Assembly (NCBI GenBank): GCA_965178125.1
Contig: OZ237748.1
Span: forward strand, 806,001 to 870,000
Length of the DNA: 64,000 nucleotides
Reading direction: 5' to 3'
From: Bilabrum cf. latius
Lineage: Eukaryota
Made by a program: the position numbers and the translations under genes. The first letter of the stretch is position 1. Each line of letters begins with the position of its first letter. The notes below the pieces were generated by a model. It made no database searches. It was not told where the DNA came from and saw nothing but the letters and a program-made list of their open reading frames with translations. Shown piece by piece: positions 22,061 to 64,000 of this stretch.

Positions 22061-25000
22061 TTAATTCCTGGCTCTCACTGGGCGCACATTATGGGCTGCC
22101 GTGTCATCAACTCTCGCACGCTTGGATCCAAGCGGTATGGATGCCGCACCCACAGACTTAGGCATTCCCCTTGGACGGGACCTTTGGCCACTTCGATCTG
22201 ATATCAATGTCATGGACTGTTCGCTTGTCCTCGCTTTCGACAGATCACCTTTGCGCTATTGCGACCCCTTTTCACTCGACGCTGCAGCCGCCTAGGGCAG
22301 GGATCTTGAGGACACATACGATGGGAAATACGCAGATGACTTGTTTGGCATCTGAACCAGCCTTTGCGGCTACCTTGCTGCCAGCACGGTACCACTAGAC
22401 GCCCGCTGGATCACTCGTTCGCTCCTGCCCCATTCCCCCGCTGCCAGTGCCGCGAGCCTACCTTCGATTCTCTGCGCACTCGTCACACCTGACATAGCGT
22501 CGTCGTGCAGCTCGCTGTAGGGTCCACGTTCCGACGTGCTGCCTCCATCAGCATCGCCCCGGCCAGCCGTGGCAGCAGCGCTAGGCACGCTGGGGCTTGA
22601 ACCTTTTCCGTCGCTGGCGTGCGTAATAGCTCCTGTTGAGTGTTCGCGCCTACTGACGGCTCGCTGGGCAAATGGCACCGACGAAGAGCCTCCGGGAGAC
22701 AGGAGAGAACCACCACCCGCACTGGTGGCACTGCTCGCTGCTGCTGCAGGTGCTGATGCTTCCTTGCCTGTCTTCTCGTCTGGCTCCGGGGGGCCGTTGC
22801 GAGAGGATGGCCGGCTCATGTACAGATCTGCGGCGGCGCTGCCCATGGACGTGCCAGACTCTGCGGATCGGATGGACCGCATGGAAGCCATCCAGGCGTT
22901 GGTCGCGCGGCCTAGCATTTGCACCACTCCGTCAGCGCCAATTCCAGCCGTGAAACCCTAGTACGACCCATCGCCGCGCTCTTGTCCAAGCGCGCTAGTT
23001 GGAGCTGGTGCGGATTCCATCCATCCGGAATCAGGGCCAGCTTGGTTCCGATCGCCAGCGCGCGATGCCGCGTGAGACGATTTTGCCGCGGCATGCATCT
23101 CCATTCGTACGCTCGCATCCTCTGTCCGTAGGCCTTCACTGCTGCTGCTGCTATCGACAGTTTCAACACGGCTGCTACCATGCGGCTCCTCGACAATCGG
23201 TGCAACGATCATCGTGCCGTTGGTGTCGCGGCCTAGTTCACGAAGCGGCGGATTCATGGCCTTTGATGAGCTTGCGACGACGATGTCGTGCCGGGATTCG
23301 GAATCGGTTGCCTTGTCGGCGGCAGGGGGCTCGGCAAAGGACGTCTCCGTCTCCGGCTGCTCTGCTCCCATAGCTCCAGACTGGCTCTTAGCATTTGGCC
23401 CCCCTCCATCGTCAGAATCGATCGTAGCTTCTAGCGATGCCAGCCGGAGAGGTCCCTCACGGCCAGACCTCGGGGCAGATCGCACGCTGTCCATACTGGA
23501 TAGCCGAGGAATCCCGTCACCGTCTGTACCCAGGATCTCGGACTCGACCCCCGCTGGAAACTCATGGCCGGTGGCAGCATCGTGCTATCTCGCTTCTGAC
23601 CAATGATTATCGTGTGATGAGTGCCGTTCGTGTGACGAGTGCAGCAGGTCCACGGATTCGCCCGAGTAGGAGTTCATTCGGGCCAGGATGCCTTCGCCTG
23701 CGCCGCCAACGATACCAGCGACTTCATTCCGATGCGGGCCAGCATTCGCTTCTGCTTGCTCTCGGTCATCCCCCGCAGGTGTTCGTTTTCTGGCTGCCAA
23801 GCTGGACGGTCCTGCCCGTGCATTTGTGCTCGGTCCAGCTTGCGCCCCGAGTCCTGGCTGTCCCCAGTGTGACGTCCTCTTGTTGGCACTGCGAGTGCTG
23901 CCGTCACTTCCACCACTGGAGGGGAGGAGCTCCATGATACAGTCCTCGACTTCGTCTTCGTCTTCATCCACGTCGTCGTCCTCGTCATCAGATACGACTG
24001 GTAATAGCGGTAGGCCTTTCCAACCGAACACCGTGGCCGGCGAAGCAATTCCGTTGGCTTCAGTCTAGCGGGCATATGTTGGCCTGCGGCTTGGCCCCAC
24101 ACCGGGTCGGACCCTGGCACTGGCACTGGCACTTGCATCATAGCTAGGCTTGCCGCTGAAACTGACACTCCGCGAGCCAATGCTGACCTTAGTATTTCCC
24201 TCTCCAGCTGATACCGTTGATTGCGCGCCTTCGTGCTGGCTCCCCTCGCTAGTCTAATGCTGTTCAAGCCAAGCAATGGCGATGGAGAAATCTGGTTTGT
24301 CTTGGAGCAGGGGTTTTCCCACAGGAAAGGTTGCACTATCGTGAGATGCACCTGAAGCAGATGCCGAGGAAGAGGATGATGGTGTCCCAGCCGCACTAGC
24401 GTGCGATGCACCCGCACGCTCATCAACGTATCCGAGCATCTATCGAATCACTCCAGGCACCTCCGCCCCCGTCAAGAAACACGCAATCAGCACAGACGTG
24501 ACATCCGCGCTGAAGTTGAACACCCGCGCCCTGCCGGCATTGAGCAGCAGACGAGCGCAGTCCAGGCTCAGCGCAGCCATCAGCGGCTGCCTGTGTCTCA
24601 TCATGAGGGACAGGCCAACGACGTTATCTTCCACCCGATACGCGCCTGTCTTCTTGAAGCGGTCCCCTGCAGTGCAACTGACCCCAATGAACTTCTTGTC
24701 CTCGGTTTTCTAGCCCGCGGATGTTCCTGCAGTTCCGGCTTGCTGAACGAAATCGCTTGCTCTGGGCGCTCTCGCGTTCTTTTGCCTCTGTTTTACCAGA
24801 TGGGCTGCTGTTCCGACCTACTGTAAAGCAGACATATTTTCTGGTGCGCTTCTGCGGCTTACCAGGTCCCTATGCTTGTAGCCAACCGGCTTCCTTCTCT
24901 TTGCAACCTTGGGCCTCGACGGCTCGTCCGGAACCATTCCGAGAAGAATGTCGAAGCACTTCTTGGGTGTTTTCCCGGATGATCCAGTAGTAAGCAAAAT

Positions 25001-25262
25001 ACAAAGGGCGGCGTAAAGATACAGGTTGTCCTTCACCGCAATCGCTGAACGGGTGAGACTGTCGTCGCCGCCGCACAAATCGGCGATGGAACCGCTCCAC
25101 GAAGCGGGGGGATACATGTGAGCCACAGGACCAAATGCATGCGAAAAGAACGGTGTAAGCGGAACTGCTGGCTCGGGCAGCACAAGCTCGCTATCGCGAG
25201 TGTCCAGTTGTTTGCTCAGCAGCAGGAGTCGCTGGCGCAACACACGGAACCTTGCCTCTCTC
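22061..25262 (-). CDS. Hypothetical protein, tandem family copy A (terminal exon, 1067 codons including stop, 10 in-frame TAG); upstream exons unresolved
   Basis: One frame from acceptor CGCAG (25263) to TAA 22061-22063, interrupted only by TAG. Shares the conserved core (YPP..DLCGGD..NLYLYAALCIL; LMAALSLDCARLLLNAGRARVFNFSADV) and C-terminal blocks (VQMLGR.TNAWMASMRS.RSA; GSKRAR) with copies B and C. Confidence 0.8.
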
Positions 25263-25872
25263 CTGCGATTGTAAGGAATTGTTCATCATTCATTCGTAAA
25301 CATGTAAATTATGTACGGTTATGGCGCAATCGTAGCCCGGGGCATGTTTGACTCACGACTGGACAGGATCGACCAAAGCGGATGATATTGACGACTTGCT
25401 GAGCATACAACTGATGCGAGATCGCACCTGAATTACACAACTTTTTATATGATAACTGCTGGTCACTAGATAAGGCCCTCCAGATGGTTTCGGTTTGTGC
25501 TATTGGGCCAGTCTAGCTGATAGGCGAGATTTGGGTGATAGAATTTTGTGGCTCCGATTCATCTTCCAGCGGTCCAGACCTTATCGAGGCCTAGTCCGTG
25601 GTGCTGTTCGACATGGCTTTCCGTGGATAATTGACACACAAATATGGCTCCATTTAAATCCAGTGCCCACTCAGTTACGAGCTACGGTAGCAAGCAAAAT
25701 AATCAAACCCGTTGCATGTTGGGCCACCACTATGGTGTATAAATCCAGTGTGCAGTAAAGCTGTCATTCTACACAGCTGCAGCTCAGATGTGCGACTACC
25801 AACTACCATCCGATGGTTCTCGTTGAATTCTGCAGCACGGCCTCCGCACCATCCGGTCCCGGTCTCGGTCTC

Positions 25873-25966
25873 GATCTTTTCAGATCTTTTCAGCCGATCC
25901 TGATCTTTTCAGATCTTTTCAGCCGATCCTGATCTTTGCAGATCTTTTCAGCCGATCCTGATCTTT
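25873..25966. repeat. GATC-rich 29-bp tandem repeat (GATCTTTTCAGATCTTTTCAGCCGATCCT, about 3 copies)
   Basis: Read directly; lies between family copies A and B, just past the TAA of copy B. Confidence 0.85.
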
Positions 25967-26012
25967 CGGCCAAATACGATACTTGGATCCAGTCTTGATC
26001 GCGGATCTGACT

Positions 26013-29000
26013 TTACTCACCTTCACGCCTGGCATGTTTTGTGCGTTCCTGTCCCGCCTGGTGCGTGCCATCTGCTGCCAGTTCCTCCGGCCGCCTGCGC
26101 TTGGATCCAAGGGCCATTGCTTTCTCTGGGTCCTCCGTCGATGGTGGAGCTCCACGGCCCCCACCAGTGGTCGCACCGTTGGCCGGGCGAGACGGAAGGT
26201 GTGCGGGCGAGTGGTTGGACACTCCAGAAGACACGCTCCACCTGCTGCCTCCCCTGTCAACTGCCCTCCCGGTCTCTCCGTCGACTGCCCTGCCTGTTCT
26301 GATGCCATCCGTCTGCGGCGATTGGTGCTCCATCGCGTCCCAATCCGTTGTGCTACCAGTCAGGCGGGAGATTCCAACAGTTGTCCTAACCTAAAGCTTT
26401 GAGTTCGATGCCACAGATGACCCGGACGGAACCTCCAGTGCTGTTGGCGAAGTTCCAGGCATGCTTCCGGTGCTGTTGATGCTGCTTGAAGCTCCGAGGA
26501 TTGAGGATGCCAGCGGCGATCCAGTGACAGTGTCAGCGACTGTTTGTTGCTGCTGTTCCTGTGCAGCACGCCCAGCAGTAGCGGATCCACTGAAACTGCC
26601 TTGTTGAACCCGATGGCTCCGCGTGATCGAGTCAGGCTGTGCAGAACCCCGGTCTGCAGCTGGCCGACGACTAGTCGCTCGGTCTGCTTGTCCATCGAGC
26701 GCACTGTCGCCGTACGTGGCATCGATGAGGGCATAGAGCGCCTACCCACGTGGGTGATCATCGCCGCGTGATCCACGGCCGGATCGCCTGGCGCTACGGA
26801 GCTGAATTCCAGTGGTTGCTTGGCGCTCTCTGACCTTGCTACCAACCGTGGCAGCAGCACGAGTGCCATCATTCGTCGGCTGGGCGTGTACCCTGTCAGG
26901 GTCCGGACTTTCATTCGATTGCCCGCCTGCACTTGGACCTACATGTGCTTCTGATCCTCCCCTGGCAACTGACATGCGCCGGACTCTTGCTACGGCCGCG
27001 TTCGACAGCACGGCAGCGCTGCCCCCTTGCAATGCTCGGTGGTCACGGTGGTCCCCCATCCCCCGCTTTCCCGCTGTCGATGCCGGAATCCCGACATCGA
27101 TCCGATGCGCACTCGTCACACCGGCCATTGCGTCATCGCCCAGCTCGCTGTTGGTGCCTCCTGCTGGCGTGTTCTCCAACTCCGTGTCCACCGGTCCGCC
27201 GATTGCCGCCAACCCAGGGATCCGACTGCTGGCAGACTCGGCTGCTCTTCCGGCGGCCTCCATTTCACGGACCCTATTCTGATTGTTCGATGGTAGTGAT
27301 GATGATGACGAGGACAAATCGGATGCCAATAGGCCGGCGTGTGACGAGTGCCCCCCGCGATGTTCCTACGTCAGCCCAATGCCACCTGCAGCGGAATCGC
27401 CGGCACCGTCAGTACCAGAGTCAAGCACCTCCGCTCCATCGCCAATCCCAAGCATTCCAGACGGGGAGGATGGGCGACTCGTGTACAGATCCGCTGCACC
27501 GCTGGCCAGAGATTTGCCTGATGCAGCGGATCGTACGGACCGCATGGATGCCATCCAGGCGTTGGTTGATCGCCCCAGCATTTGCACCGTTCCTGCTGCA
27601 GTGCGCATTGCCCCATGTCCATGCTGGCCAAGGCTAGGGGGTGGTTCAGATCCCGATGCATGGCCGCGACGAGAAGCTGCCGATGACGCGTGGGATGTTG
27701 CTGCGTTCGTCACACCCAGAGACGTATTTGTTGCACTCGTCACACTGTCTCCCACCTCTACCGAATCCTGGCGGACCTGCGCCGTGCCTGGTGCAAGCAG
27801 GCCTACACCACCATTCTGGGCATCCTCGACTCGAGGCCGCAAAGGGGCAGGCTGCAAGCCTCTCGGTAGATGCACGATGCCGGACGGCTCTTGCTCTTGC
27901 CCTCGTCTGCTCCGGTCCGCAGCTGACAGTGTGGAAGCCGTCTCTCCAACTGGTGGGCTAATGGCCACCTGAGATTCAGCTTCGCCTTGCACCGACCCCG
28001 AGCCTATGCCTGTCACTAGACCCATACTTGCTGGTAAGCCTGACATCCGGGTCAAGCCGCTTTGGCCACCATCGCTAATCACACTTGCTGCAAGCTCGCT
28101 GGCAGGTGCTGATAGGTCACCTGCAGATAGAACATGTTGTCCCGGCTGCCTGAAGGGGACCATCTGGGCGTTGCGGGGCAGTTCTTCGGAAGAGGACGAC
28201 GAGGACGAATGGCCACACGATGGGGGTTGCGATGAGGGCCCACACTCGCTTGCACTCGTCACACTGCCGTTGACCGGCTATGCGATGCTGTGCTTGGTGA
28301 TCTCGCGGTCCGCAGCACCGGATCCAATGTCGTTGGTTAGACCCGCAATGGCTCGAGTGCCCTAATTGCCTTGACTGGCTCGAGTCTCCTGGTCCAGGTC
28401 TCGCAGTGCCCCCCCAAGAAACTCATCGGCTGACCCGTCCTACACCTGCAGGTAGGAAGCGGATCTCGCACGTCCGCCACGAGCGTCCTAGGTGGGCCCG
28501 TAGAACCCTGACATGGTGCTGCTGCGACCGACCGGATCGGTTCGCCCAGCCAGGACGTGCAAACCGCTGGCCGAACCATGAAATCCACCCGTAGCTTGCA
28601 TGGCATGTGCGCCATTCTGAGCATCCTCCATGAAATCGACATGATCGGCCCCAAATTCGATGCCCTATGCGATTCCACTGCCACTACCACTGCCACTGCC
28701 CCTGCCCCTGCCACTGCCACTGCCACTGCCACTGCCATCTCCCAGGCCTTGTAATTCAGATGACTGATAGTCATGTGACGAGTGCATCAGGTCGGTCGAT
28801 CGCTCCTCCTAGTACGACTGCACCCCGCCCTATGCTACTTCGTCTGCGCCCTATCCTGGTCCGAAGCGGCCCCTGCCCCTGCCTCTGCCTCTGCCCCTGC
28901 CCTCTGAGGCTAGGCCTAGAGTTGCGCCTGCATTCGTCGATGCGATTGGTTGCCCCCACATGCCATTCGCTGGCGCCTCCGGCATCGCTTCATCAGTCGC

Positions 29001-31329
29001 AGGCATGTCTTCTTTGGCTTGACGAGTGCCGTGTACCAAGCTGGACGCTGGCGTCCCGTACGCGACAGCTTCAGTCTCTATGACAGGTGCGAGTCCCACA
29101 CCGCTCGCAAGCCGCATCAACTCCGCGTCACCCGAGGCAGAAAGTGCGCCCCTGCTCCGGCTGCTTCCCCAGCCGATTCCACCATTCGTGCTGCCCTCTC
29201 CGCCGCCTCTATCGTGATTCACATGCTGGTCCGTAGGGCTGTTGCCGCGGCTCCCAACAGGGGTGCTTAGCTGGCTAGACGGGTTGGTCATCTCAGCGTG
29301 TGACGAGTATGCCACCGATGGATACGCCGCTAAGAAGGGGGCCTCCCCAGATGCCGCGATGCTGCGTTCACTGACCTGCCACCGCTGCTGCTGCTGCTGC
29401 TGCTCCTGCTGCTGCTGCTGCTCCTAGAGCGCGCTACTGGACTGCTCAGCTTGCGAACGTGCGCTTCCATTAGACTGCAGCAGCGTTGGGAATGAGGGCA
29501 GACCAGCAGAACGCAAAGAAGCCACACGGGTCCCACTGGATGCTGACGCGGAGGAAGGGAGTGTGGATACTTGCAGAGCACCCGATGGAGAGGAGATGTT
29601 TTTGCTGTCATTATACCCATCGTTTTCAGCCTGGCCGGATCCAGGCACGCTGCCGATGCTCTATGATCTGCGGCGGGACTCCCAATCGAATGAAGGAGGC
29701 ACTGCGGGCGCCCCGCTGCGCAGCTCAATATCGCCCAACACGCTTGCTGAATAGGTCCTGTCTTGTAGCGCATCTGCACTTGACTATGGGACACGTTCGC
29801 TACCATGTAATGCGCCTGCTCTTGTGCCCTGCCGGCGTGGTCGTTTCGAAGCGCCGCTCCAGTGTTGGTCATTGGATTCCGTTTCTTCATTCGTCGTACC
29901 CGCCGTGTCACCGCTTTCATCAATTGCGGTAGCCTCGTGCTAGGAGATACTGCCCCTGCCTCTGCCCCTGCCTCTGCCTCTGCCTCTGCCCCTGCCTCTG
30001 CCCCTGCCCCTGCCCCTGCCCCTGCCCCTGCCCCTGCCCCTGCCCCTGCCTCTGCCCCTGCCCCTGACACTGCCACTACCTGCCCCTGTGTCCGTATTAT
30101 CACTAGCAATGTCAACGTTTGCAGTGGTGATCGATCGTCTGATTCGGCGCCTTCTTGACTTGCGTAGTCCCCCGCGGGAGCTCACTACATCCTCCCCCTC
30201 CTCCTCGTCCTCCTCGTCCTCCCCATCCTAGCTCCCGTCTTGCTGCTTCAGCCAGGCGATGGCAACGGCCAGGTCCGGCCTGTCCTGTAGAAGCCTTCTA
30301 GAGGATGGACAGGGCACGTTATCTTGCAATGCTCCTGACGCAGATGCAGAGATACGTGATGCCGACGAAGACGATGATGACGAGGTATTTGACGAGGAGG
30401 AGGCTCCTTCGTGAGTATCACCCGCACTCTCCTCACCGTATCCGAGCATCTATTGAATCACTCCAGGCACCTCCGCCCCCGTCAAGAAACACGTGATCAG
30501 CACAGACATGACATCCGCGCTGAAGTTGAACACCCGCGCCCTGCCGGCATTGAGCAGCAGACGAGCGCAGTCCAGGCTCAGTGCAGCCATCAGAGGCAAC
30601 GGGTGTCTCATCAGAGGCCTATCGAAGGACACGCTATCCTCAACGCGGTACGAGACAACTTTCTCAAATCGTTCTTTTGCAGCGCATGAAACGCCGATGA
30701 ACTTCTTGCCCTCGTTCCTGTGCGCGTCCGAGAAATCGGTGCTATGGGCCTCTGGTGGGCCACCACCGTCACCCTCTTCGTCGCTCCGGTTTTCGGAAGG
30801 AGGGCCAGCGCCTGCAGGCTCGCTGGATTCGCCCGCCTACCGACGTGTCAAACTTGCAGATTTTCCCGACATCGATCGTCGTGCCGAGCCCGGTGACTTC
30901 CCCCCCTTTCTGGCTTCCCTTGGCTCCCTGGTCTTGTCGTGCTTGAATCCAACGGGCCTCTTCCGGCAAGCAATTTTGGGCCTGTCAGGCTCGTCTGGGA
31001 CCAGGCCCAGGAGAATATGTCGGCACTTTTCCGGTGTTTTCCCAGACCTTGTGGATGTCAGCAGGAGACAGAGAGCGGCGTACAGGAATAGATTGCCGCG
31101 CACTGCCGTTGCTGACCGAATGAGCCCTTCGTTACCGTCGCACAAGTCGGCAATAGCATCACTGACAGTAGGTGGGGGGTACTGATGGGCTATTGGACCG
31201 AACATGTTTCCAAAGAATGGCTACAGAGGACTGTCTGGCACGGGCAGGGCTCGATGGTCGTCGCGATTGTCCAGTTGGTTGCAAAGAAGAACAAGATGCT
31301 AACGAAGAACTCTGAACCTTTGCTCTCTC
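26013..31329 (-). CDS. Hypothetical protein, tandem family copy B (terminal exon, 1772 codons including stop, about 20 in-frame TAG); RG repeats and poly-Q
   Basis: Continuous frame from acceptor at 31330 to TAA 26013-26015 with no internal TGA or TAA. It joins nine fragments of the ORF track in one frame and is homologous to copies A and C. Confidence 0.8.
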
Positions 31330-32370
31330 CTGCGATTCAAGCCCTATCAATGAATATAACAACAATAAACAAATAATTGTCAAGGTAGACCGGTAAATCG
31401 TATGGCTACGTGCCTTCTTGACTCACTATTCCCGTTGATCGTCCAACTTTGGATGGTGCGCAGCTTTACGCGGCATGCTTCCGACGATTTAGATCGGCAT
31501 ATAAATGAATAACAAGTATCTTTATTCCAAAGAGAAACGATGCAGCCACGTGAACCTGATGTATCACCAGATGCTGGAGGCGCCAATAGACCGGTCTACG
31601 AGCTTGGGTGGAGAATGAATGGCTCCGGATTGTCTGAAGACGCTTCTCGCGAAACGCCCTTGCGTACAAATAAGTAGCAGATTTGCATAGACCTCTGGGT
31701 CCAAATAACAATTAAAATATCCGCTATCGCTGAGCAGTACGATTTCTCTAAAACACTGTGTAAACAGCGCGTTATACTCCGAAATGGCAACGTGACCCAT
31801 CTGTAGGGTGTACTGCAAGAGGGAGCCAGAACAAACTGCAGGAAAGAATGTCCACTGTTTGAAGTGTTGCATGTATCATTGGTGGCATCTACTGCTTGAA
31901 GGCCGGTCACACATCCTTTCTTTGCAGCATTTATTGGGTATTCTGTGTATGGGTGAAGATAGCGTGTATGCCAAGAATTGCCCACAAGAAAATATCAGCT
32001 TGTGCAGTTTGCGAACCAGTTACCCCTAACGTGGTCAGATTGAGTTTTAATCATTCAGTGAGCCAATCGATGGAAGCGGCTAGGTCCTTGGCTCTAAGTG
32101 CACCGCCGCGTAACTCAGTCTCCGCTGTGGAGGGCAGGAATAGCATTGACATGTCCGTGTGAATCAGGGCCGCACAGGGTGACCCGGTGTCCCCCCAAGA
32201 TACGGGTACTACACAACTTAGTTAGGCTACTGGACAGCACGGCTCGGTTGATGGTGTTTACCCGTGTCACGCAGCAATCTGAATTTCTGGTCGATGGTTG
32301 ATCACCTCTGCTCATGTGTGGACTGGTCGTCGAACAGCTACATGGTTCTGCATCAGTGTTCAAGATTTTA

Positions 32371-35300
32371 TTAATCGACAGCACGTCTCAAAACCCTGGC
32401 CCGGACTCGACGACTACCACTTGTCCTCGCATCATCTAGCCTCGCGCGCTTGGACCCGACCTCCGCCAAAGCCCCAGCTTGTGAGTACTTGCCAGCGACC
32501 ACAGGTGGTTGAGCCCCAGCTGCACTACCATCAATTGGGCCTCCAGCTGAACGAGACGGATCGTGTGCGGGCGAGTGGCTGGACACTCCAGAAGACACGC
32601 TCCACCTGCTGCCTCCCCTGTCAACTGCCCTCCCGGTCTCTCCGTCGCCAGCCCTGCCGGTCTCAATTTCATCAGCATGCGACTGCTGCTGCTTAAAAGT
32701 GTCCCAAATCGATGCGCCCTAGGGCTCGCTCCGCACCCTCGACTTGTCAACCGACTTGTCAACCGACTTGTCAACCGACTTGTCAACCGATGGATGTTCC
32801 TTCTCGTGTGGAGAACTGCGGGGCCCGCTGCCATTGAAACCAGCGCCCGTGCTCGTGTTGCTGCTGCTTGAAGCTACCACCACGGCTGGTGATGGCGAAA
32901 ATGATAGTACATTGGTGCCCGAAGCTACTTGCTGCTGCTGATGACGGTGCGGCGGATGTGCTTCCTGCCTCTCTGAGCTTGTATTGTTACTGGCTGCTGC
33001 TGCATCTCGCTGCATACGGCTAGTGCCAGTACCATTTTCGCCGGGACTTGTCGATGATAGAAGACCCGGCTGCTCTACTAGACCATCGACCGCTCCATCG
33101 CCGTACTTTCTTTCAAGTAGATCAGATAGCCGCGAGCTACCGGCCCGCTGCCCAGCCCTCAATCCGGATCGGCTGGCTGATCTCAGGGTACCCGTGGATG
33201 GGCTCCGAGTTGAGCCCGCAATGTCCTCGGCTCTGTTCTCCTGATCTTGATCCGCACTCTATCCACGGACTGCTCTTGCTCCTGCGCTCGCACCTGCTCC
33301 TGTTCCTGTTCCTGTTCTTGCCTCTGCCGCGCCACCTGTGCTTGAATGGCCTCCCACAGGGCCATGGGTTTGCTCCTATTCAGAAGCGTCCGCATCCAGG
33401 CCAGTCGCCTCGTCAATAACAGGATCGCCAGGAGCGTCCACCGCCACTGCCCTCGGGCCGTTTGGCCTGCGGAACCTGGCCGCGCCCGGCGTTTTGCCAT
33501 CACCCGTTGCCTTGCGCTGAATCTTGCGGTCGCTCCTTCCCCATTCGCCCGCGGCGAGCGCCGCGAGCCTGACGTCAATCCGCTGCGCACTCGTCACACC
33601 CGACATCGCGTCGTCATGCACGTCGCTGTATGGGCCGCGTTCCGATGTGCTCTCCAGCTCCGTGTCACCCACACCTGCAGTTGCCGCTGCGCTCCTGATG
33701 TGCTTACTTCCAGTGCTGGCAGCGCCAGCACCTGTACTGTTGTTGGCTGCAAATGATAAAGAGGAGGAAGAAGAAGATTGCTATTCGTTCTCGTTGCGGG
33801 GTGCGACGCCGCTGCCCCCATCGGGTCCTGTTGCGCCAGTCCGCGACGAGGATCGGCTCATATACAGCTCTGCCGCGGCGCTGCCTATGGACGTGCCAGA
33901 CTCTGCGGATCGGATGGACCGCATCGATGCCATCCAGGCATTGGTTGATCGCCCCAGCATTTGCACATTTCCTGCTGCAGTGCGCATAGGCCCATGTCCA
34001 TGCTGGCCTGGGCTAGGGGCTGATCCTGATCCTGATCCTGCTCCTGATCCTGCTCCCGGTCCTGGGACTGCTCCCGGTCGTGGTCCTGCTCCTGCTCCTG
34101 GTCCTGCTCCTGGTCCCGGTCCCCACTCGTGCTGGGATGCGGCTGCGCGGCCTGCCGTCATGGGGTTCCTCTTCGTTGTCGATGCTCCTGACCCTGGTCC
34201 TGGTGCTGGTGCTGGTGCATGCCCTGGCGCTGGCCCAGGGCCTGATTCACTCGTCACACCGTCTTGCAGGTCTCCCGTGATTGGGTTGCTTGGGACCTTG
34301 CGGCCGGCGAGAGAGATGGCACTGCCGTGCAATGCAGCCTGACCAGGGGGAGGCTTCAGGCCGCGCGGTGGATTCTGCACTCCCACCGGCGCATGCGTCG
34401 ACCCTGGCGCGGCCTTTGCTTCTGCTCCTTCCCCTGCTCCAGCTCCTGCCCCTGCTCCTGCTCCAGCTCCAGCTCCAGCTCCAGCTCCAGCTCCAGCGCT
34501 GTCTTTGGAGCCTTCGCCCTCCTCACGCGAAGCTGATAGGGTCCCTTGAGCAAAGCACTCTTGCGCGCTGCTGCGCCTCTCAACCTGGGGTGGCTAGCCC
34601 ACCGCCATCCCGGTAATCCCGGTGATTCCGGTGATGCCGGTCATCCTGGTCAGTCCGCTGAGGCCGCCGGCACTCATCACACTAGCGGCAATTTCGCTCG
34701 GCGGCACAGACATGTCACCCGCTACTCGTACTTCTTCGTGCCGTGGTTGGTGCTATCGGTTGGGGAAGACGAGGTTTTGGGGCAGACCGCCGGATGATGA
34801 CGACGATGAAGATGACGATGATGATGACGACGACCCGTGCTTGGAAGAACCGGAGTCGCTCGCACTCGTCACACTGCCGCTGAGTTGGCTCCCCGCCGCT
34901 GCTTCGAAACCACGGGGGGGTGCATCTCCAACTCCGCGCCTGCCGCCTGCGCCCTCCCCCGCCTCGGCGTTTTCCATCTGCGCCAGCCTCTGCAATCCAC
35001 TCGTCACACTCATTTCCGATCCACCGGTGGATCGAACGCTCTCCGCGCTTCCCATGCGAGGCACTGGCTGCCCTTCCGAGCCGGCGTCGTCATAGTTCGC
35101 GGCTCCGAATGATGCGGGGAACTCACTGCCTAGATCAAGGTTGTGTGACGAGTGAACGCCGTATGACGAGTGCAGCAGGTCCACAGATTCGCCCGAGTAG
35201 GACTCCATGCGGGCCAGGATGCCTTCGCTGCCCCCGCCCACCTCAATCTCGATCCCCGCTGCACCTGCACCTGCACCTGCACCTGCACCTGCACCTGTCC

Positions 35301-52900: not shown

Positions 52901-53080
52901 GCAGAGGTGGCAACGCCAGTCTTGGCTGGAAATCTCCCCAGCGCCACAAGCGAAGATGCTTGAGCACATGGAGAGAGCAGAACACATCAAGTGTACCTGC
53001 AACTCCAAGCAAATGCAAAACAATCATGCAATCCGTGCAACGGGTGTGAACAGCCCGACCTAGAGTCGAGGTGATCATCC
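49968..53080. repeat. Satellite array 2: ~9.5 units of 326 bp, including two 359-bp variants and one truncated unit
   Basis: CACTATCCAGCATGGAAT recurs at ~50013, 50339, 50665, 51024, 51383, 51531, 51857, 52183, 52509 and 52835. Confidence 0.95.
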
Positions 53081-53093
53081 TCCCGCTGGACCA

Positions 53094-54186: not shown

Positions 54187-54977
54187 CCACCCACCATCCC
54201 CGCAGTTATTACCACTGCCGCGCTACTGCAGCAGTGCCCACTATCGCATCCCATCGCCAGTCTTTTCATTCGTAACTCATCACATTTTACCCGCCCACCT
54301 TCCCCCTCGGGCAAGCACTGACTGGCAGTGAATCGATACAGGGCTGTTGCTCCGCGCTGTTAGCGGTTGTAACCGCTTCGCCAAGACAATCCAAGTCTTG
54401 GCAGAGCCGTGAGGCATGGTGACTCGGCAGCCCATACCAGGGCTGCCCGACCACTAGCACATGACCTGGAGATAGAGCCAGGTCGGTCACTAGACACACG
54501 CGTGTCTACAAAGGTGGCAATACGCCACCGCCCTGAGAGCCAAGCATCGTAGGCTACGTAGCGAGGACTGTAGACCATGACGAAACAATCTCGCAGTGAT
54601 AGATCGCCTCACCAACGAGCATGAGTGAAGGGCGTCATGGCTTCTTGTGGCTATCCGGCTAGCACCACAGCCTGGATAACTCCAAGAATGTATTGATTAG
54701 TTGTATACTAAGATGTTGTTTATAGTACGTGGCCTGTATACCATATATAACTCCAAAGATGGGGACTAAATGAACAAGATCCAAGGACCCGATCTTAATA
54801 GCGTGGATTATTTTGAAAATCTTCTTAATCACCGGCTTAACCCCTAATCACGGATCTTGGGTCTCTGTATTAAGGTTTTGGCCCTAATAGCGCACAGCCC
54901 TGGTAAGCATGTCAATTTACAGTACAGCAAAATCATAAAAATCTACAAATACGGGCAAGCGGAGTGATTCCGAGAAC

Positions 54978-56984
54978 TCACTCATCCTACCGCTCTTCGC
55001 CTTCATCCTTCTTCTCTTCATGGTCGTCATCAGCATGCTTCGAGGCAGCAATTTGCAGCGGGGCTACCTCTCTTGCCTCTATCCACTCCCTGCCCCCTTT
55101 CTCCACCACTCGCCCATGACTTGGCATCGGCAAGCTCATGCACTCACACGCCCCGGCATGCCCGTCGATTTCACCGGTGATCATCATCCTCTCTGTGGCT
55201 TCACCTAGCAGCTCCGCGCGAACGTCATTGTACTTTAGGCTGGCATACCGGTGGAATAGCGTTGTGGCCGCCCTGTCCGAGCAACTGCACTTGGTGCTTA
55301 TCCTTGCGACCTTCCACGGTCCTTGCCTGGCTCCCCTTCGGCGACTTGAACCAGAACGCTCGTCCTCGTCCTCATCTTCTGTACTCCCCCCAAGGTCTTG
55401 CCCATCGCCAACGTGCTCTTGGCAGTACCGACACGACTCGCCCAGATACAGGAGGGGTCCTTTGCACGCAAAGCAGCCGTCTATGGCGGGCCTGATAATC
55501 CTGGTCTGCCGTCCCACAACCCGCTTGCACGACAAGCAACCCCACCGATGACGAAACACGGGCGTGTAGGCGTGCTTGATGCGCACTGGGTACTCTGGCT
55601 CGGTCAGTGCTGCGTGGCACCTCCAATCATGGAATAGAGGTCCGTGTCCGCGCTCCCGCACGCGGTTCACAACGCAAACGGCGACGTGGCACATTTCGTG
55701 CAGCAAGGAGCAGGCCATCTGCTGATGCGTGGATAGAACGTTCGTGCTGAGTTCGATTCTTATCGACTGAACCACGGCATCTTCCGGCCAGTGGACGCGA
55801 GTTTTTCCGGCGATCGCAGCGAGACGGGTATTCCAGCTGATCTCAATGTGGGGGCTGCCACTACCACTGCCACTACCCGATGATGCAGGTCCAGACCGTG
55901 TACCACGGGATTTCCAGTACATGGCCGGTGGCAGCTGACCGCTGAACACTGTCCTGTTGAACCTGCGGTACAGCTGCATTGCGATCATGGCACGCTTGCT
56001 CCTGCATGCAGGCAGTAGCGTGGGCGATACTTCGACACCTTTTTCTGCACTAGATCTTCTGCCGGGTGAAGAACCAGCCGAAGCAGCAGTCGCAGCGACG
56101 GTTGCATCCTTGGGACCGGCTTGGCTTGCCTTACGCTTCGTTTGGCCGGTGCCAGATTGGCGCGTGGTGCGGGTCTTTTTTCTGCCCTTGTCATCGCCAT
56201 CCTCGTCGTCGTCCTCGTCCTCGTACGCGTCCTCTATATCGCAACTAGGGCTGTGCCCGGCTCCAGTGGAAGCACCGGAGCCGCCCCAGCGGCTGCCCGT
56301 ATCGCTGCCCGTGCCCCTGTGCCTGTCGATGTATCTGCCGCTGGGCCTGCCAACGCCGAAGCCAGCGTTAGCACCAACATCGCCCAGTTGCTACCTCGTC
56401 CTCCTCCACCTTTTGGGCCCAAGGGCTAGAGGCCTGTTTCGATTGACGCGACCCCACTGGCATGGAGGAGGAGTCCGCACGTCCCCTGCGCCCCGGGAGG
56501 AGTTCTCTGCAGTCTTCACCTCCCGTGCGCGCGAGTGCCCAGCTCTGGCCTTGGCCCTAGATTCGGCTCTAGATCTGGCGCGAGCACGTGCCCTCAGTCT
56601 GACCGTTCTGATGATACCAGTGGTGCCGCTCGTTCCAGTTGGCCCGTCTGCCCCGCGCACCGACTGGACGGTGTCTCCGTTGCCTCCGACAGTGCCAGTG
56701 TCCCCGTTCTAGTCGTCCGAGGGATCACGAGGCTCCACGCTGGTCGCTGCGGCACCAGCTTGGAGACCTTCTCGGCTGTATCCCGCCTCTCCTGGGACAC
56801 GCATACTGCCGTCCGAATCGGACTCGGTGTCGGGCGGTATCTCGATCGGGCTCTGGCTCCTGTCCGTGGCGCCCGCATGCGCGCTAATCATGTACTGCGT
56901 ATTAGCTTCAGTATATGAAAAGCTCGGGCAGGGACTGTCATGCGTTTGGCTTTGGCCACTCAGTTGTTCCGATGGAGAAGACAT
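54978..56984 (-). CDS. GCNA/ACRC-like SprT (Spartan-family) metalloprotease, copy 1 (668 aa, 3 in-frame TAG)
   Basis: Disordered acidic/basic N-terminus read through TAG 56709 and 56391, then LYRRFNRTVF..LP, IEISWNTRL..AG, IELS..VL, LLHEMCH (HExxH), HGPLF, a CxxC..CxxC zinc ribbon and a degenerate HMG-like segment. Ends ER*DE-TGA 54978-54980. Confidence 0.85.
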
Positions 56985-57842
56985 GGCGAGCACCGAATAC
57001 ACCAGACGCTGTCTGCACTACCTCTCAGGCTAAAAATCGCGACACCGCTTCGTTAATTCGGGCGGTAGATTGGTATCAGGGTCCTTATTGCGATATTATA
57101 AGCACGTGAGTACAGGTTGCACCCCGGTGTACAATTTCCTGGTACCGCTACCAATTCAGACCGCGAACGGAGCTCTGACTACGCTAGGTGTACAGTAGCA
57201 GCAATTAACAATCGGACCATATATAGTTGCATCGACAACTTACGACTGTCGATTACAAGTTCCGATTTCTTCTTATTTGGTGATATTGTGTGTCCAGTTG
57301 CACTTCTGCCAACTGGTGCGAAGTCGTATCGCTTCTCAGATTATTACTGATAGCATTAGCAGTAAAATTGATACGGTTGTTGAGAGTGCCATCAATCTTT
57401 GCAGATGCAGTCAGGATGAGCGACGGATATAGGCGAAAGCTCATTTCGGAGTTCAGGACGGCTGGTTCAGGCGATGTTGTATCCTGTAGATATTTTCTGC
57501 TATACAAGGCTTTATTTCAGTCCACATTATCTCTCCTAATATTACACATGTGTTGAATTGAACCATTTGCTAGAGAAAGGTCGCTTTGGCACCAGGTGCA
57601 GGGCTGACCAGGCAGATAGGACTTCCATACGCGATCCACTACAACTAACTTGCGTCAGGTTAGTTGAATCTTGACAATACTGATACTTTTGAACAAAACT
57701 AAAACAAGCTTAGATTCATATTGCATCGTGTCAGATAAAGCTTCCGTTACGTAGGACGCTTGAAGCCTTGCCATTCCCCCTCCAAGCCGCAGTCGGGAAG
57801 CAGCACCCTTCACCGATGAGTGCGCGTCTGTGCCGATTTCGT

Positions 57843-60143
57843 TCACTCGATCCCGTTCTCTTTGCTTCCGTCCTTATCGGTCGGCTGAATTGGCTTCTCG
57901 TCCCAGACGGCACCTGCACCTGCACCTGCACCTGTTCCTGCACCTGCACCCGCACCTGCACCTACACCTGCACCTGCACCTGTTGTACCTGCACCTGCAC
58001 CTGCACCTGCACCTGCACCTGCGCCTGCACCTGCGCCTGCGCTTGCTGCACCACGCGAACGCCGCCGCTGCTCCGCCTCCCGAGTTTCCATCCACTTCTT
58101 TCCGCCACGGTGGAAAAACCTCATTTGCAGCTCCTCGATGACGGCGCTGTGGCCTGGAACAGGGAGGCACCGACAGCGGCGGCGCGGCAGGGGATGGCGG
58201 GTGCTGCACGCCGCTTCGGTGCCACTTTGGCCAGCACCCGCCATGCAACTTTGGCCAGCACCCAGCTCTCTCTCAATGGCAGCATTCGTCAGCTCCTTGC
58301 GCACATCGGTATACTTGAGGCAAACGTACCGGTGAAGCAGAGAAGGGGCATGGCGAAACGACCTGCTGCACCGCGTCGTGACCCTAGCACTCTGCGGAGG
58401 CCCGTGCTTGGACCGACCTCCGCGTTTCCCGTGATACTGCCCACCTCCGGATTGCCCCTCACAGGACCGACAGGCCTCGCCGATGTACACGAGTGCCCGT
58501 TTGCAGCTCCTGCATCCATCCACGGCCGGGTCAATGCTCTTGCTTTGCCGGCCAACGACCTGCTTGCAGAACACGCATCCCCACATGTGCTTGTGCACGG
58601 TGACGTACCTGTGCCTGACGGAAACGGGGTACTCGGGCTCTTCAGTGCCCGCGCGATCCTTCCAGTGATGGAACCGATGGCCGTGACTTCTCTCCCGGGT
58701 ACTGTCGATCATGCTAACGGCCATGTGACACATCTCATGCAGGAGGGTACACCCCAGCTGGTATTCCGTTGACAGGATCTTCGTGCTGAGCTCGATCCCG
58801 GCCCATTGTACCGGTCCTAGGGGAGCGGTCCTAGGGGGCTCTCGAGCCGCAGGATCGGATGACGAAGGGTTGAGCTCGCCTGCGGATGCAACCTGGGACA
58901 TCCTCATCCTGATTGCCCTCCCCGCAGCAGATCGTAGCCGTGGGTTCCAGCTCAATTCCACCCGTGCACATGCCGTGGTCCCGCTGGAGCTGCTGGCGCT
59001 TCTGGTGCTGCTCTTGATATCAGAGTGCACGGCCGGTGGCAGCTGACCGCTGAACACTGTCCTGTTGAACCTGTGGTACAGCTGCAGTGCGATCATGGCA
59101 CGCTGGCTCTGGCATGCAGGCAGTAGTTGGCCATCAGCACTCGGACCCGGAGCCCAGACCGAGTCCTTGTGTCCTCCATCCACGTCGTCCTGGAGCATGG
59201 GGGGGCATTTCCCCCCGCATGGGGGGGTTCTTATGGGGGTTCCCTTGTGCGATGGGGTCTCCAGAGACGCTCCTGTCGAGGTCCACCTGACCCGGGGGTC
59301 ACCGTGCGCACTACCATGCGATGCATCGTCGCGCTCTACCCGCGCCTTCTTCGCCCCTCGAGTTGTGCCGTCCATATCGTCAGTGTCGCTGTCAGTGTCG
59401 CTGTCAGTGTCGTTGTCGCTGTCGCTTTCATCCGCGTCAGGGTCGGCGCCCCACCTCGCCTTGATGCGCCCATCGGCCTCCTTGGTTGCGTCGGCGCCAG
59501 AGCCGTGCCCAGCCACGAGCCCCATTGCCCCTACCACCTCCCCCACGGGCTCTACTCTCCGCCTCTTGTCGCCCAACGCAGCCTTGGGCGCGTATATTGA
59601 AGGCCCCTTTCCATGGATGGGTACAGCGGCGGCTGGGCCTCCACGGCTCGGGGCAGCGGTTTGGGCAGCGCCGCTGTCGTTTCCGTGGCCTGATCGCGCT
59701 GACCCATCGCCGTCTCCAACCCCGCTGCCGGGTGCTGAGGAGGCAGCGCTGGCGGGGAATGCGTCTTCACCGACCGGGCTGCCTGACGGTTCTGCGCTTC
59801 TCTTGACGAGTGCGGGATTGTATGACTCGGTGCCCCCCGTGTCGATGATTCCGCTGATGCGGATTCTTCCACTGGCAGTCCACCGGATGGCGCGTACCTC
59901 TCCTGGGCCTGCTGGTAGGTCTCGTTCATCGGCATTGTCGGCGTCCTCGGTACTCCACCTCCTCCCTCTTGACCTCCTCACCCTTCTCCTGGCGGGGGCT
60001 GGGGCCATCATGTGCGAGTCCGAATCAGAGTTCTAGTCAGGGTCCGAATCCCAGATCAGGGCGGAGCCAGATATGCCTTGGCTTGAGCTCGTATTCGCTT
60101 CGTCTTCACTGGCGCCGTCAAGTTTGCCGGACTAAGATGACAT
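57843..60143 (-). CDS. GCNA/ACRC-like SprT metalloprotease, copy 2
   Basis: The 722-aa ORF has LLHEMCH, HGHRF, CVFC..CRSC and an HMG-like segment. It extends 44 codons upstream through two TAG to ATG 60143 (MSS*SG, matching the MSSPSE start of copy 1). Ends in TGA. Confidence 0.85.
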
Positions 60144-61057
60144 CGCCAGGGCTCCAAGGACTCTGTTCGCACCAGTCTGCAATCGAGTAGCTTAGCTGGA
60201 TGCTTCGTTCGGCACCCAGGCTTAAGTTTGAGGGTATTTAATACTGCGATAACGAATTGGGGGTGTCAATACTGTAATTTAAGAATTATTTGGGTGCAAA
60301 CGAGCTGCTTCGAATGCTACGGCACTGCTACCGGCGCACAATGCTGTCGAGAACTGTGTGTAGCCCAACCACAACCACGCTTCAAAGAAATCATGCATGC
60401 CATCCGTAGCAGATACAGTGGTACAGTATCAGTATGTAACACTTATATATCACCTTACGTCTAAAATAATGTGTAAGATTCTCCTGGACGGCTTCTTTTT
60501 TGTGATTACATGCACCTGTTTGCAGGTGGGGATTGTTCCAGGCAACACCGAAGGTTCTACGAATGTTCTGCGCTCACGCATTTTATGTTATTAGCTCTCT
60601 CTCCACGTATGGCTTCACCAATACAACTTAGAGCAGGCCATGTAGTATAATGAGGTGAGTTGTTTGCACGGAGGCTTCGGTGTAGCAAAATACGTGTGCT
60701 TTTATGCCATGCATTGGCTGCAGATGTTGATGCAATCTCTAGTGTCTTCACTGTCTTATCATGGCCGCGAACCTGAGGATCATCGGTACGCAGTACATGT
60801 TTATTGGTATTTTTCATTTGCTAGGTATGGGTTGGGGCTATTCATTGCATTGGTAGGACTGCCATCTGCCTGGCACTGTTGGCAAAATCAATCTCGACCT
60901 TTCGGTCCACACACGGCACCAAGCAATCAAGTTAAGCACATTGAGTCGGTTTAGTAGTGTATATATCACAATGTTGCACTTTCAAAGTGGCTCTCGGCCC
61001 AAACTGCTGATAATTCCTGAAACATGTTGCTCGCTCTCTTGGCAAGGTGTTGCTCGC

Positions 61058-61760
61058 TCATCGCCGCCGCCCCCGCTTCGCCCCGATTGCCCCGCCGTCC
61101 GCGTACCCTCCGGCGCTCCCATCCTCTTCATCATCGATGTCTCCGTCATAGCTGTGATCGAATCCGCCCTCTGGATCAAAATCCCACCGGAACGTGGCCT
61201 GCTCAGCACCTTCGGTCCTCCTCCTCCTCCTCCTATAGGCCGGCCTGCCACCTCGGCGAATGCTGCCACCACTGGCATGCTCCAGCCGGGCCGCATCAGT
61301 GCGCGCCCCTGTGGCACCGGCCCACCCGCGGCCCACCCGCGCACTCGTCACCACAACGTCCTCTTCGTCATCGTGCACCTCGCTCCATCCGTCTGCCTCC
61401 ACATCCACGGGGTCAGCCAACAGCGATTCGCTGCTGGAGTCGTCCTCGTCGTCGCCGTATTGATGTTCCCCCTCTTCGTCTGCTATACATTTGCCTGCTA
61501 GAGCAACAGCCCCGACGGCAGATATCCAGTGCCGTGATTGCCCAGGAACGCTGGTGCTGGTGCTGGTGCTGGTGCTGGTGCTGCTGCTTCTGCTGCTGCT
61601 GGTAATCGCCTGCGCCATCGCCATTTTGCCATTACTGCAGCACGATCCGATGTTTTCAGTTCGGCCGTTCGGCTCAATGGCGCGCTTGTCCTCATTGGCC
61701 GAATCGGTCCCCTGAGCTGTGGCGAGCTCCGTGGTCTCGGGGGCGGCTCCTCCACGCGCC
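61058..61760 (-). CDS. Acidic low-complexity hypothetical protein (paralogue of the next gene); 5' end unresolved
   Basis: C-terminus DGSAGGYADGGAIGAKRGRRR-TGA matches DGGAGGYADDGTIGAKRGRH-TAA of the 62754 gene. Confidence 0.55.
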
Positions 61761-61852
61761 TATTTAAGTGATGAAGCTTGAAATGCACTGCAACATGTTT
61801 GAGTGTAGATTTGCAGTTAGAGGCTCAAGTGCTGTGTGGAGCGCAGGTGAAG

Positions 61853-62135
61853 TAGTTTTAATCTTCTTCTTCCACAAGTCAGCGCAACGAAGCTGCCAGT
61901 GGCTGGATTTCGTGCTCTCGGTCAATTGTAACCAATTGAATGTAAACTCGACTGTCTGCATTTTCTAAATTATATTATATCACGATGCCATACTATAGAT
62001 ACAGTTGTTGAATTATTTCTGTCAGAAGTGATGCTGTAACATCATTGACGAATGCAGTTCACAAGTGCCGGCAACCAGCTCCATCCACAAGTTGCAACCG
62101 GCCCAGAAAAACTTTCAAGAAGAAGATTAAAACTA
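61853..62135. mobile_element. Candidate MITE: 17-bp TIRs flanked by TA
   Basis: TA|GTTTTAATCTTCTTCTT (61853-61871) ... AAGAAGAAGATTAAAAC|TA (62117-62135), a perfect inverted pair with an AT-rich non-coding interior. Confidence 0.5.
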
Positions 62136-62753
62136 TGAGATCCGGAGTCCGGACTCGGCGGTCCGCGCTGCGCCGCTGTCTGGCCGCTGGCAGGCGGCGC
62201 CGCGGCCGCGCCGAATGTCGATTTGCCGGCTAGGCGCTGGTGCCTGGTTTGGGCTGCTGCGGATAGATATCCAGCAGCTTTCCTACGTATTGCAATTTTA
62301 GTGTGTTTTAAATCCCACTCAGTGCTGAAATTTGTTCTTGCGCCTGGTCTTATTGCTGGTCTGTGTTGATGCAGCTACATCGAGCTTTTGGCAGCACAAT
62401 CAAAAATTTGAACTGTCACACGGTTTCCAGCATACTATACCGGCAGTCGTATATACTCGAATCGAATTGCGATACTAATTGTAAACATGCATTAAATGCT
62501 CGTTTTGTCAAGATCCTGAGCATCAGGTACCACACGAGACAGGCTTACAATATGACCTGTACTACTACTAGTCCACACTTATGAATCCATTAAACTATAA
62601 ATATTGTAATGGTTGACTACGTTACCGAGACCGCTCTGTAGCTAGACTTTTCGTCCGACCTCTCTGGACAAAATGTGAGGCAGGGAACTTGCGTGATACA
62701 TTGCGCTGAATACGTGACAAATTGTAGATTTAATAAACATTCCCCGTGGTCGC

Positions 62754-64000
62754 TTAGTGCCGACCCCTCTTCGCCCCGATGGTCCCGTCGTCAGCGTACC
62801 CACCGGCGCCCCCGTCATGATGGTCGTCATCGTCGTCCTCATGATTGCGTTCGTGCCAAGGGCCTCCAACATCACATGCAAATTCCACCCTGATACATGT
62901 ACCACACGTCCTGCTCCTCGTCCTCCTCCTCATTCGACCCCTGCTCCTCATCCCGCCGCCCGGCAGCAACACACACATCGCAACGCACACAGTGTGTCCT
63001 TCGTCGTCATCCTCATCCTCATCGTCATCGTCGTCATCGTCATCATCGTCACTAGAATCCGAATCCACGTCAACGTCTTCAACGAATTGGAACTCCTCGT
63101 CCTGCACAGCACCGCCGGGCACTGCCTGCGCCTCGTCCTGCACAGCACCGCCGGGCACCTCCTGCTCCTCGTCCTGCACAGCACCGCCGGGCACCTCCTG
63201 CTCCTCGTCCTGCACAGCACCGCCGGGCACTGCCATCTCCTCGTCCTGCACAGCACCGCCCGGCACTGCCTGCTCCTCGTCCTGCACAGCACCGCCGGGC
63301 ACTGCCATCTCCTCGTCCTGCACAGCACCGCCGGGCACCTCCTGCCCCTCGTCCTGCGCAGCACCGCCGGGCACTACATGCTCCTCGTCCTGCACAGCAC
63401 CGCCGGGCACTGCCTGCTCCTCGTCCTGCACAGCACCGCCGGGCACTACATGCTCCTCGTCCTGCACAGCACCGCCGGGCACTGCCTGCTCCTCGTCCTG
63501 CACAGCACCGCCGGGCACTGCCATCTCCTCGTCCTGCACAGCACCGCCGGGCACTGCCTGCTCCTCGTCCTGCACAGCAACGCCGGGCACTGCCTGCTCC
63601 TCGTCCTGCATAGCACCGCCGGGCACTGCCTGCTCCTCGTCCTGCACAGCACCGCCGGGCACTGCCTGCTCCTCGTCCTGCACAGCACCGCCGGGCACTG
63701 CCATCTCCTCGTCCTGCACAGCACCGCCGGGCACTGCCTGCTCCTCGTCCTGCATAGCACCGCCGGGCACTGCCTGCTCCTCGTCCTGCGCTGCACCGCC
63801 GGGCACCTCCTGCTCCTCGTCCTGCACAGCACCGCCGGGCACCTCCTGCTCCTCGTCCTGCACAGCACCGCCGGGCACTGCCATCTCCTCGTCCTGCACA
63901 GCACCGCCGGGCACCGCCATCTCCTCGTCCTGCACAGCACCGCCGGGCACTGCCTGCTCCTCGTCCTGCACAGCACCGCCGGGCACTGCCTGCTCCTCGT
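62754..64000 (-). CDS. Acidic tandem-repeat protein (partial; runs off the window end)
   Basis: About 25 in-frame copies of AVPGGAVQDEEQ/M, then a poly-Asp tract, a basic patch and the shared C-terminus; stop TAA 62754-62756. Confidence 0.65.
   Translation of the reverse strand, partial: EEQAVPGGAVQDEEQAVPGGAVQDEEMAVPGGAVQDEEMAVPGGAVQDEEQEVPGGAVQDEEQEVPGGAAQDEEQAVPGGAMQDEEQAVPGGAVQDEEMAVPGGAVQDEEQAVPGGAVQDEEQAVPGGAMQDEEQAVPGVAVQDEEQAVPGGAVQDEEMAVPGGAVQDEEQAVPGGAVQDEEHVVPGGAVQDEEQAVPGGAVQDEEHVVPGGAAQDEGQEVPGGAVQDEEMAVPGGAVQDEEQAVPGGAVQDEEMAVPGGAVQDEEQEVPGGAVQDEEQEVPGGAVQDEAQAVPGGAVQDEEFQFVEDVDVDSDSSDDDDDDDDDDEDEDDDEGHTVCVAMCVLLPGGGMRSRGRMRRRTRSRTCGTCIRVEFACDVGGPWHERNHEDDDDDHHDGGAGGYADDGTIGAKRGRH
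63094..64000. repeat. 36-bp coding minisatellite (~25 copies)
   Basis: Unit CTCCTCGTCCTGCACAGCACCGCCGGGCACTGCCTG with substitutions only and no frame-breaking indels seen. Confidence 0.97.

Follow-up and report, generated by a model that had tools for sequence, protein, structure and literature searches.

To our knowledge, UAA and UAG nearly always change meaning jointly. Lineages in which the two part company are natural experiments, both on the discrimination of A from G by eRF1 in the third position of a stop codon and on the beginnings of a reassignment. The first demonstration of a nuclear code in which UAG means glutamine (Gln) and both UAA and UGA remain stops came from the fornicate Iotanema spirale, in a report which also notes that NCBI table 15 had been wrongly attached to Blepharisma (Panek et al. 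2017, PMC5304391). UAG read as Gln with UAA as a stop has been reported for Protocruzia tuzeti and for two phyllopharyngean ciliate lineages (McGowan et al. 2024, PMC11687900), and other residues are on record for UAG, namely leucine (Leu) in the rhizarian exLh, where UAA and UGA are stops (PMC5304391), and serine in Scotinosphaera (cited in PMC11687900). Both UAR codons mean Gln (NCBI table 6) in many ciliates, ulvophyte green algae, Hexamita, Streblomastix and Amoeboaphelidium (PMC11687900). The crAss-like phages use genetic code 15, with TAG as Gln and TAA and TGA as stops (PMC9523058), which is also the pattern proposed here for a 64-kb stretch of DNA assigned to Bilabrum cf. latius (contig OZ237748.1, positions 806,001 to 870,000, assembly GCA_965178125.1; hereafter the window, in its full length of 64,000 nucleotides).

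In this GC-rich protist nuclear DNA (guanine and cytosine, GC, content 51-65%) UAG is very probably a sense codon, most likely for Gln, with UAA and UGA as the only terminators, as NCBI table 15 is written. Pfam recognises genes of eukaryotic nuclear type in the window: a cullin, a proteasome beta subunit, a kynureninase, an FG-GAP/EGF protein, a pair of SprT-like genes and a number of genes with ankyrin repeats. An earlier note on the same DNA had argued for a table-15-like code rather than the common UAR = Gln code, and the argument stands, with TAG as a sense codon also in the cullin and kynureninase genes and with TAA as a terminator that occurs in none of 9,470 in-frame codons.

In-frame codons in the large paralogues and the coding set

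Three large paralogues on the reverse strand carry long runs of in-frame TAG. Their features are as follows.

22061 to 25262, reverse strand: large paralogue 1, main exon, with 10 TAG and the TAA stop at 22061-22063; splice sites predicted from sequence only
25357 to 25406, reverse strand: large paralogue 1, predicted first exon with ATG; the intron is placed at 25263-25356
26013 to 31329, reverse strand: large paralogue 2, main exon, with 20 TAG; first in-frame TAA at 26013-26015
31427 to 31476, reverse strand: large paralogue 2, predicted first exon
32368 to 37339, reverse strand: large paralogue 3, main exon, with 8 TAG; the stop TAA at 32371-32373 is followed at once by a TAA at 32368-32370
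37436 to 37455, reverse strand: large paralogue 3, predicted first exon

Taken from stop to stop, the open reading frames (ORFs) at 22061-25282, 26013-31346 and 32371-37401 (all on the reverse strand) measure 1,073, 1,777 and 1,676 codons and hold 10, 21 and 8 in-frame TAG together with 13, 30 and 20 CAA. Their sum is 4,526 codons with 39 TAG, 63 CAA and no TGA, and TAA appears solely as the last codon. The middle ORF opens with a TAG that would fall inside the predicted intron, so that 38 of the 39 remain in exons. The earlier note had given about 4,500 codons with 38 TAG, frequent CAA and no internal TAA, and had placed the first TAA 16-25 codons past a common GSKR(A/R)R motif; both descriptions agree with the present counts, the tails behind the motif being 16, 25 and 22 residues long in paralogues 1, 2 and 3, and the TAA-TAA that it reported at 32371 is indeed two stops in direct succession.

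The predicted first intron has GT..AG borders, a length of 94-97 nucleotides and the same position in all three copies. The codon assembled across the splice junction would be TCG in copy 1, TAG in copy 2 (31427/31329, put together from two exons) and CAG in copy 3. The possibility that the three ORFs are exons of a single giant gene, two of the TAA then being intronic, was considered and rejected, because each ORF has its own ATG-bearing first exon and its own intron of this kind.

Codons were counted over 12 coding segments, the extent of each being backed by Pfam, homologues or paralogues, and the satellites at 47.3-53.1 kb were left out of all codon counts. The 9,470 in-frame codons of this set include 51 TAG, 0 TAA and 0 TGA. 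The two other frames of the same coding DNA contain 46 TAA, 124 TAG and 352 TGA. Codons ending in A are common enough in the set, CAA making up 29% of CAR, GAA 31% of GAR and AAA 25% of AAR. Were TAA used interchangeably with TAG, it should occur about 21 times, and the chance of finding none alongside 51 TAG is about 2e-8 (with a CAA share of 0.29). Beyond the stops the picture changes: the 100 in-frame codons past each of 17 stops (1,700 in total) hold 20 TAA, 35 TAG and 29 TGA, so that TAA is found in 0 of 9,470 coding codons versus 20 of 1,700 past the stops (Fisher P = 4e-17; post-stop density 1.2%). The coding segments are delimited by TAA and TGA, which makes the TAA count partly circular; in a control with ORFs bounded by TGA alone, TAA on the coding strands occurred only at the edges, behind C-termini or ahead of start codons.

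These counts bear directly on the alternative that UAA and UAG both mean Gln, as in table 6, with TAA made rare by high GC and TGA as the sole terminator. The base composition of the window is in its favour, as are the preponderance of TGA among the stops (13 of 17) and the in-frame TGA that each of the three large genes has 6 to 47 codons past its first TAA. This alternative is nevertheless very unlikely, since it leaves unexplained the lack of TAA among the coding codons, the rise of TAA density right past the stops, the tandem TAA-TAA at 32371 and a TAA that occupies the position of a sister copy's TGA in a pair of acidic paralogues (below).

TAG accounts for about 13% of the presumed Gln codons (51 of 388) and has a density of 0.54% per codon in coding sequence. 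Conserved genes, with 3 TAG in 1,567 codons, use it about a quarter as often as the lineage-specific genes of low complexity, with 38 in 4,508, as expected of a codon served by a minor tRNA.

Is TAG then translated as such? The least probable of the alternatives considered is that it is not, the TAG being products of pseudogene decay (for example C-to-T mutation of duplicates), assembly errors, or sites of UAG to CAG editing in the RNA. It is true that the majority of TAG are in tandemly duplicated, fast-evolving, low-complexity genes. However, decay or C-to-T mutation would also yield TAA (from CAA) and TGA (from CGA or TGG), neither of which is present in 9,470 codons; TAG is found in the single-copy cullin and kynureninase genes as well; and uninterrupted frames reach lengths of as many as 1,777 codons. 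Mutation of duplicated genes in the manner of repeat-induced point mutation was rejected on the same ground, there being no TAA or TGA in frame. The assembly itself can be compared with contigs from runs of two studies, which cover 22853-24474 and 26254-28302 and differ from the window by 0 or 1 letter, in no case at a TAG. Contigs of other runs carry the same letters, and the letters of the assembly are sound. RNA is recorded for none of the 7 runs listed, and the four that were compared (X1, X5, X6 and X7) consist of contigs that behave like DNA, having no splice joints at the introns and no transcript ends.

A relative of the large paralogues with 53% identity is found on two short metagenome contigs (L001 and L002), where the open frame of about 380-400 codons includes 3 TAG, 0 TAA and 0 TGA. 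A database protein predicted from this sequence terminates exactly at the first of the three TAG. Otherwise the family is matched solely by short database proteins. No Pfam family was matched in any of the three large paralogues. About 300 residues on the N-terminal side make up a domain conserved among the three, and a profile search with this domain among 1.84 billion representative proteins returned 7, of which 5 are short relatives and 2 are weak matches to repeat proteins; the AlphaFold2 model of the domain, built on an alignment of 8 rows, was poor (mean pLDDT 48). A basic motif, G-[SA]-K-R-x-R, is found close to the C-terminus of the large paralogues (22100-22130, 26080-26110 and 32430-32460) and of the acidic pair (61060-61090 and 62757-62790), and it resembles G-x-K-R-x-R stretches in the SprT-like genes. 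The motif may be a nuclear localisation signal.

Termination at TAA and TGA

The stop codons of 17 genes could be placed, 13 of them being TGA and 4 TAA. UGA is a terminator and not a tryptophan codon: it is missing from the in-frame codons and ends 13 of the 17 genes, and in the cullin and proteasome genes the TGA coincides with the end of the homologues. For TAA a comparison is offered by two acidic paralogues at the right-hand end of the window.

61058 to 61627, reverse strand: acidic paralogue 1, with the TGA stop at 61058-61060
62754 to 63998, reverse strand: acidic paralogue 2, its 5' side running off the window, with the TAA stop at 62754-62756

When the 3' ends of the pair are aligned as DNA, the TAA at 62754-62756 shares its column with the TGA at 61058-61060; GCGA comes next in both copies, and farther on the similarity fades. 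The correspondence between these two stops had been pointed out in the earlier note, and the alignment confirms it. At the level of aligned DNA the pair argues convincingly for TAA as a stop. Acidic paralogue 2 has a 36-bp repeat in 25 copies with 93% matches (63093-64000), which encodes a 12-residue acidic repeat, and the Gln codons of its whole 414-codon segment are 42 CAG, 1 CAA and 0 TAG.

Several observations weigh against reading TAA as a plain stop and TAG as a plain sense codon. On the one hand, all four genes ending in TAA are lineage-specific, homologues from elsewhere against which to set their C-termini being absent, and it is the paralogues alone that vouch for their ends. Moreover, the TAA of large paralogue 2 (26013-26015) is part of GGTGAGTAA (26013-26025), which fits the local consensus for 5' splice sites and whose GTGAGT (at 26020) is the only GT[GA]AGT in the 5,317-nucleotide exon and is the same hexamer that serves as donor of the predicted introns. 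This TAA could, judging by these letters, lie in a short terminal intron, and the case for TAA as a stop would then rest on paralogues 1 and 3, on the acidic pair and on the zero count of in-frame TAA. On the other hand, in two of the 17 genes a TAG precedes the TGA stop by 2-3 codons, namely in the ankyrin-repeat copy ending at 15336 (TAG at 15328-15330) and in SprT-like paralogue 1 (TAG at 54987-54989). These two TAG may be relics of former TAG terminators that are now read through, or residual termination sites.

The second of these possibilities leads to an ambiguous UAG, read mostly as Gln and used as a terminator in some contexts near gene ends, in the manner of Condylostoma or Blastocrithidia. 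At a TAG density of 0.54%, a binomial estimate gives a probability of about 0.03 for two or more such genes, which speaks for ambiguity; but former TAG stops read through to the next stop predict the same pattern, the other 15 genes have no TAG near the end, and the 20 TAG inside one exon demand efficient read-through. We regard ambiguity as improbable, and UAG as a regular sense codon is the reading that is retained in what follows.

The amino acid read at TAG

Two conserved single-copy genes have internal TAG, one in the cullin and two in the kynureninase.

3285 to 5720, reverse strand: cullin, last exon, with a TGA stop at the canonical cullin C-terminus and an in-frame TAG at 5004-5006
11847 to 12620, forward strand: kynureninase, last exon, with a TGA stop and in-frame TAG at 12072-12074 and 12393-12395

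The residue is the least secure element of the reading. Its strongest single piece of evidence is the TAG of the cullin gene, which is Q in an orthologue from another assembly that is 89% identical over 814 aligned positions. In kynureninase, the TAG at 12393 faces Q in all 6 of the closest among 120 homologues; the column is variable over the whole set (T 26, E 19, S 17, A 14, Q 10, L 10). The other kynureninase position points elsewhere: TAG 12072 faces L in 74 of the 120 homologues, H in 15, V in 10, Q in 7 and E in none, and L in all 6 of the closest. Among the window's own gene families, TAG stands opposite E, Q, K, R, H and a few other residues in the ankyrin-repeat paralogues, where several sites face glutamate (Glu), which likewise does not favour Gln. 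In the N-terminal domain of the large paralogues it stands opposite CAG/CAT, ACA/CAA, GAC/GAC and GGC. The predicted first splice junction of these paralogues would add a further site, with TAG in copy 2 opposite CAG in copy 3 and TCG in copy 1. Most TAG in comparisons of the large paralogues and of the SprT-like pair are in poorly aligned low-complexity parts, and about 5 columns are usable.

Summed over 15 sites, BLOSUM62 scores are 22.9 for Q, 16.8 for E, 7.8 for K, 6.6 for R and -28.8 for L. Gln is the best fit to these roughly 15 aligned sites and is probably the residue inserted at UAG. It is unlikely that UAG is sense and UAA a stop with some other residue at UAG, Glu being the likeliest candidate and lysine or Leu less so; UAG as Glu, taken by itself, is from the same alignments slightly less probable again. 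For a residue other than Gln speak the ankyrin-repeat sites opposite Glu, the second rank of E in the sums, the kynureninase column dominated by Leu, and the existence of UAG = Leu and UAG = Glu codes in other protists, as mentioned in PMC11687900 and PMC5304391. Against it stand the Q of the closest orthologue, that of cullin, the Q of the six closest kynureninases at the second site together with the lack of any E at the first, and the strongly negative sum for Leu over all sites.

How could UAG be read as Gln with UAA left as a stop? The earlier note had postulated a release factor that reads UAA and UGA but not UAG, and a tRNA with a CUA anticodon. By analogy with established codes of this type, a tRNA-Gln whose anticodon had changed from CUG to CUA, a single anticodon change, would decode UAG, and because C34 pairs only with G such a tRNA-Gln(CUA) could not read UAA. 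Eukaryotes have one release factor, eRF1, which would here recognise a third-position G poorly or no longer and be a weak competitor at UAG, and which would still read UAA and UGA, with UGA as the commoner of the two remaining terminators. The sole RNA gene found within the window is a tRNA Val-CAC, and eRF1 is not among the genes of the window.

Lineage, neighbouring genes and comparison with known codes

The proteasome gene was used to place the lineage of the window. The best named among the 120 matches listed come from Bicosoecida sp. CB-2014, at 74% identity, and from oomycetes, at about 66-72%, and there are no ciliates among these 120 best matches. In a single-gene tree of 22 rows, the window's protein and a relative with 90% identity group with Bicosoecida sp. 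CB-2014 (support 92/91), and the group containing the bicosoecid is sister to oomycetes (87/89); the position of Cafeteria is not settled in this tree. Among the named cullin matches, two long plant proteins come first and oomycetes follow, with about 29-32%. Kynureninase and the proteasome tree both point to a stramenopile. The host is probably a heterotrophic stramenopile by these comparisons, which give a lead and not a placement, the tree being of one gene with moderate support.

The other genes of the window are the following.

7714 to 8355, reverse strand: proteasome beta-1 subunit, mature part, with 0 TAG and a TGA stop
13600 to 21743, forward strand: three multi-exon ankyrin-repeat paralogues with exonic in-frame TAG, all ending in TGA (stops begin at 15334, 18435 and 21741)
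931 to 1592, forward strand: further ankyrin-repeat copy
1859 to 2212, reverse strand: further ankyrin-repeat copy
38400 to 40548, forward strand: further ankyrin-repeat copy
42623 to 46693, forward strand: FG-GAP/EGF membrane protein, with 5 in-frame TAG and a TGA stop
54978 to 56987, reverse strand: SprT-like paralogue 1, with 3 in-frame TAG, one of them 3 codons ahead of the TGA stop
57843 to 60146, reverse strand: SprT-like paralogue 2, with 2 in-frame TAG and a TGA stop

The last exon of kynureninase is preceded by a canonical GT-AG intron at 11570-11846. Tandem gene families dominate the window: three large low-complexity genes (22061-37455), two SprT-like genes (54978-60191), two acidic genes (61058-63998) and six ankyrin-repeat genes (931-2212, 13600-21743 and 38400-40548), the last with a common C-terminal module. 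Directly behind one ankyrin-repeat gene, a 59-bp unit that includes its last codons and TGA is repeated 6.2 times in tandem with 97% identity (18380-18744). Two satellite arrays are present, one at 47347-49735 with periods of 125, 253 and 378 bp (79-85% matches) and one at 49972-53083 with a period of 326 bp (88-98% matches); since every satellite unit has stops in its long frames, both arrays are non-coding.

Separation of UAG from UAA is already described as a kind of code in Iotanema, Protocruzia and the phyllopharyngeans, and the window probably adds a new lineage to this known variant. Full-text searches for a stramenopile or other new case, judged by titles and abstract openings and with most subscription journals outside their coverage, listed no report of nuclear stop-codon reassignment in a stramenopile. 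We judge it evenly balanced whether this is the first case of a reassigned stop codon in the nuclear genome of a stramenopile, in which UAG = Gln with UAA kept as a stop would have arisen independently on a GC-rich background. If it is, the base composition becomes informative about the route: TAG stops are expected to have been common in a GC-rich genome, and a passage through an ambiguous intermediate would therefore be favoured over disappearance of the codon. The TAG found 2-3 codons upstream of a present TGA would then be fossils of former TAG terminators. A case beyond ciliates and metamonads, in a GC-rich genome, would supply an independent data point on how the two codons come apart. 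There is also a practical side. Gene calling with the standard code splits the proteins of this lineage at every TAG, and annotation, orthology and completeness estimates of such assemblies are wrong unless TAG is read as Gln.

Among the described systems, Iotanema is like the window in having in-frame UAG only, no in-frame UAA or UGA (in Iotanema, outside retained introns) and genes that end in UAA or UGA, as far as its description in PMC5304391 goes. The two differ in that Iotanema is an anaerobic metamonad with UAA as the predominant stop, whereas the window is GC-rich, ends most of its genes in TGA (13 of 17) and has genes that point to stramenopiles; the code of Iotanema rests on hundreds of transcripts (PMC5304391) and that of the window on one 64-kb stretch. 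Protocruzia and the phyllopharyngeans, as described in PMC11687900, separate UAG from UAA just as the window does and probably read UAG as the same residue. They are ciliates, however, a group with no entry among the 120 best proteasome matches listed, and the window combines satellites with tandem gene families on a contig of 64 kb or more.

In exLh and Scotinosphaera, as they are characterised in the sources named at the outset, UAG alone is reassigned and UAA is kept, as in the window, and the amino acid differs. With respect to exLh, Leu is the worst-scoring plausible residue in the window, though one kynureninase site faces Leu. Termination in crAss-like phages uses the bacterial RF1 and RF2, a machinery distinct from eukaryotic eRF1. 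Finally, the UAR = Gln codes resemble the window in the change from stop to Gln, presumably by way of a mutated tRNA-Gln, and differ from it at the very codon by which the two can be told apart: there TAA is a sense codon too, whereas in the window it ends genes.

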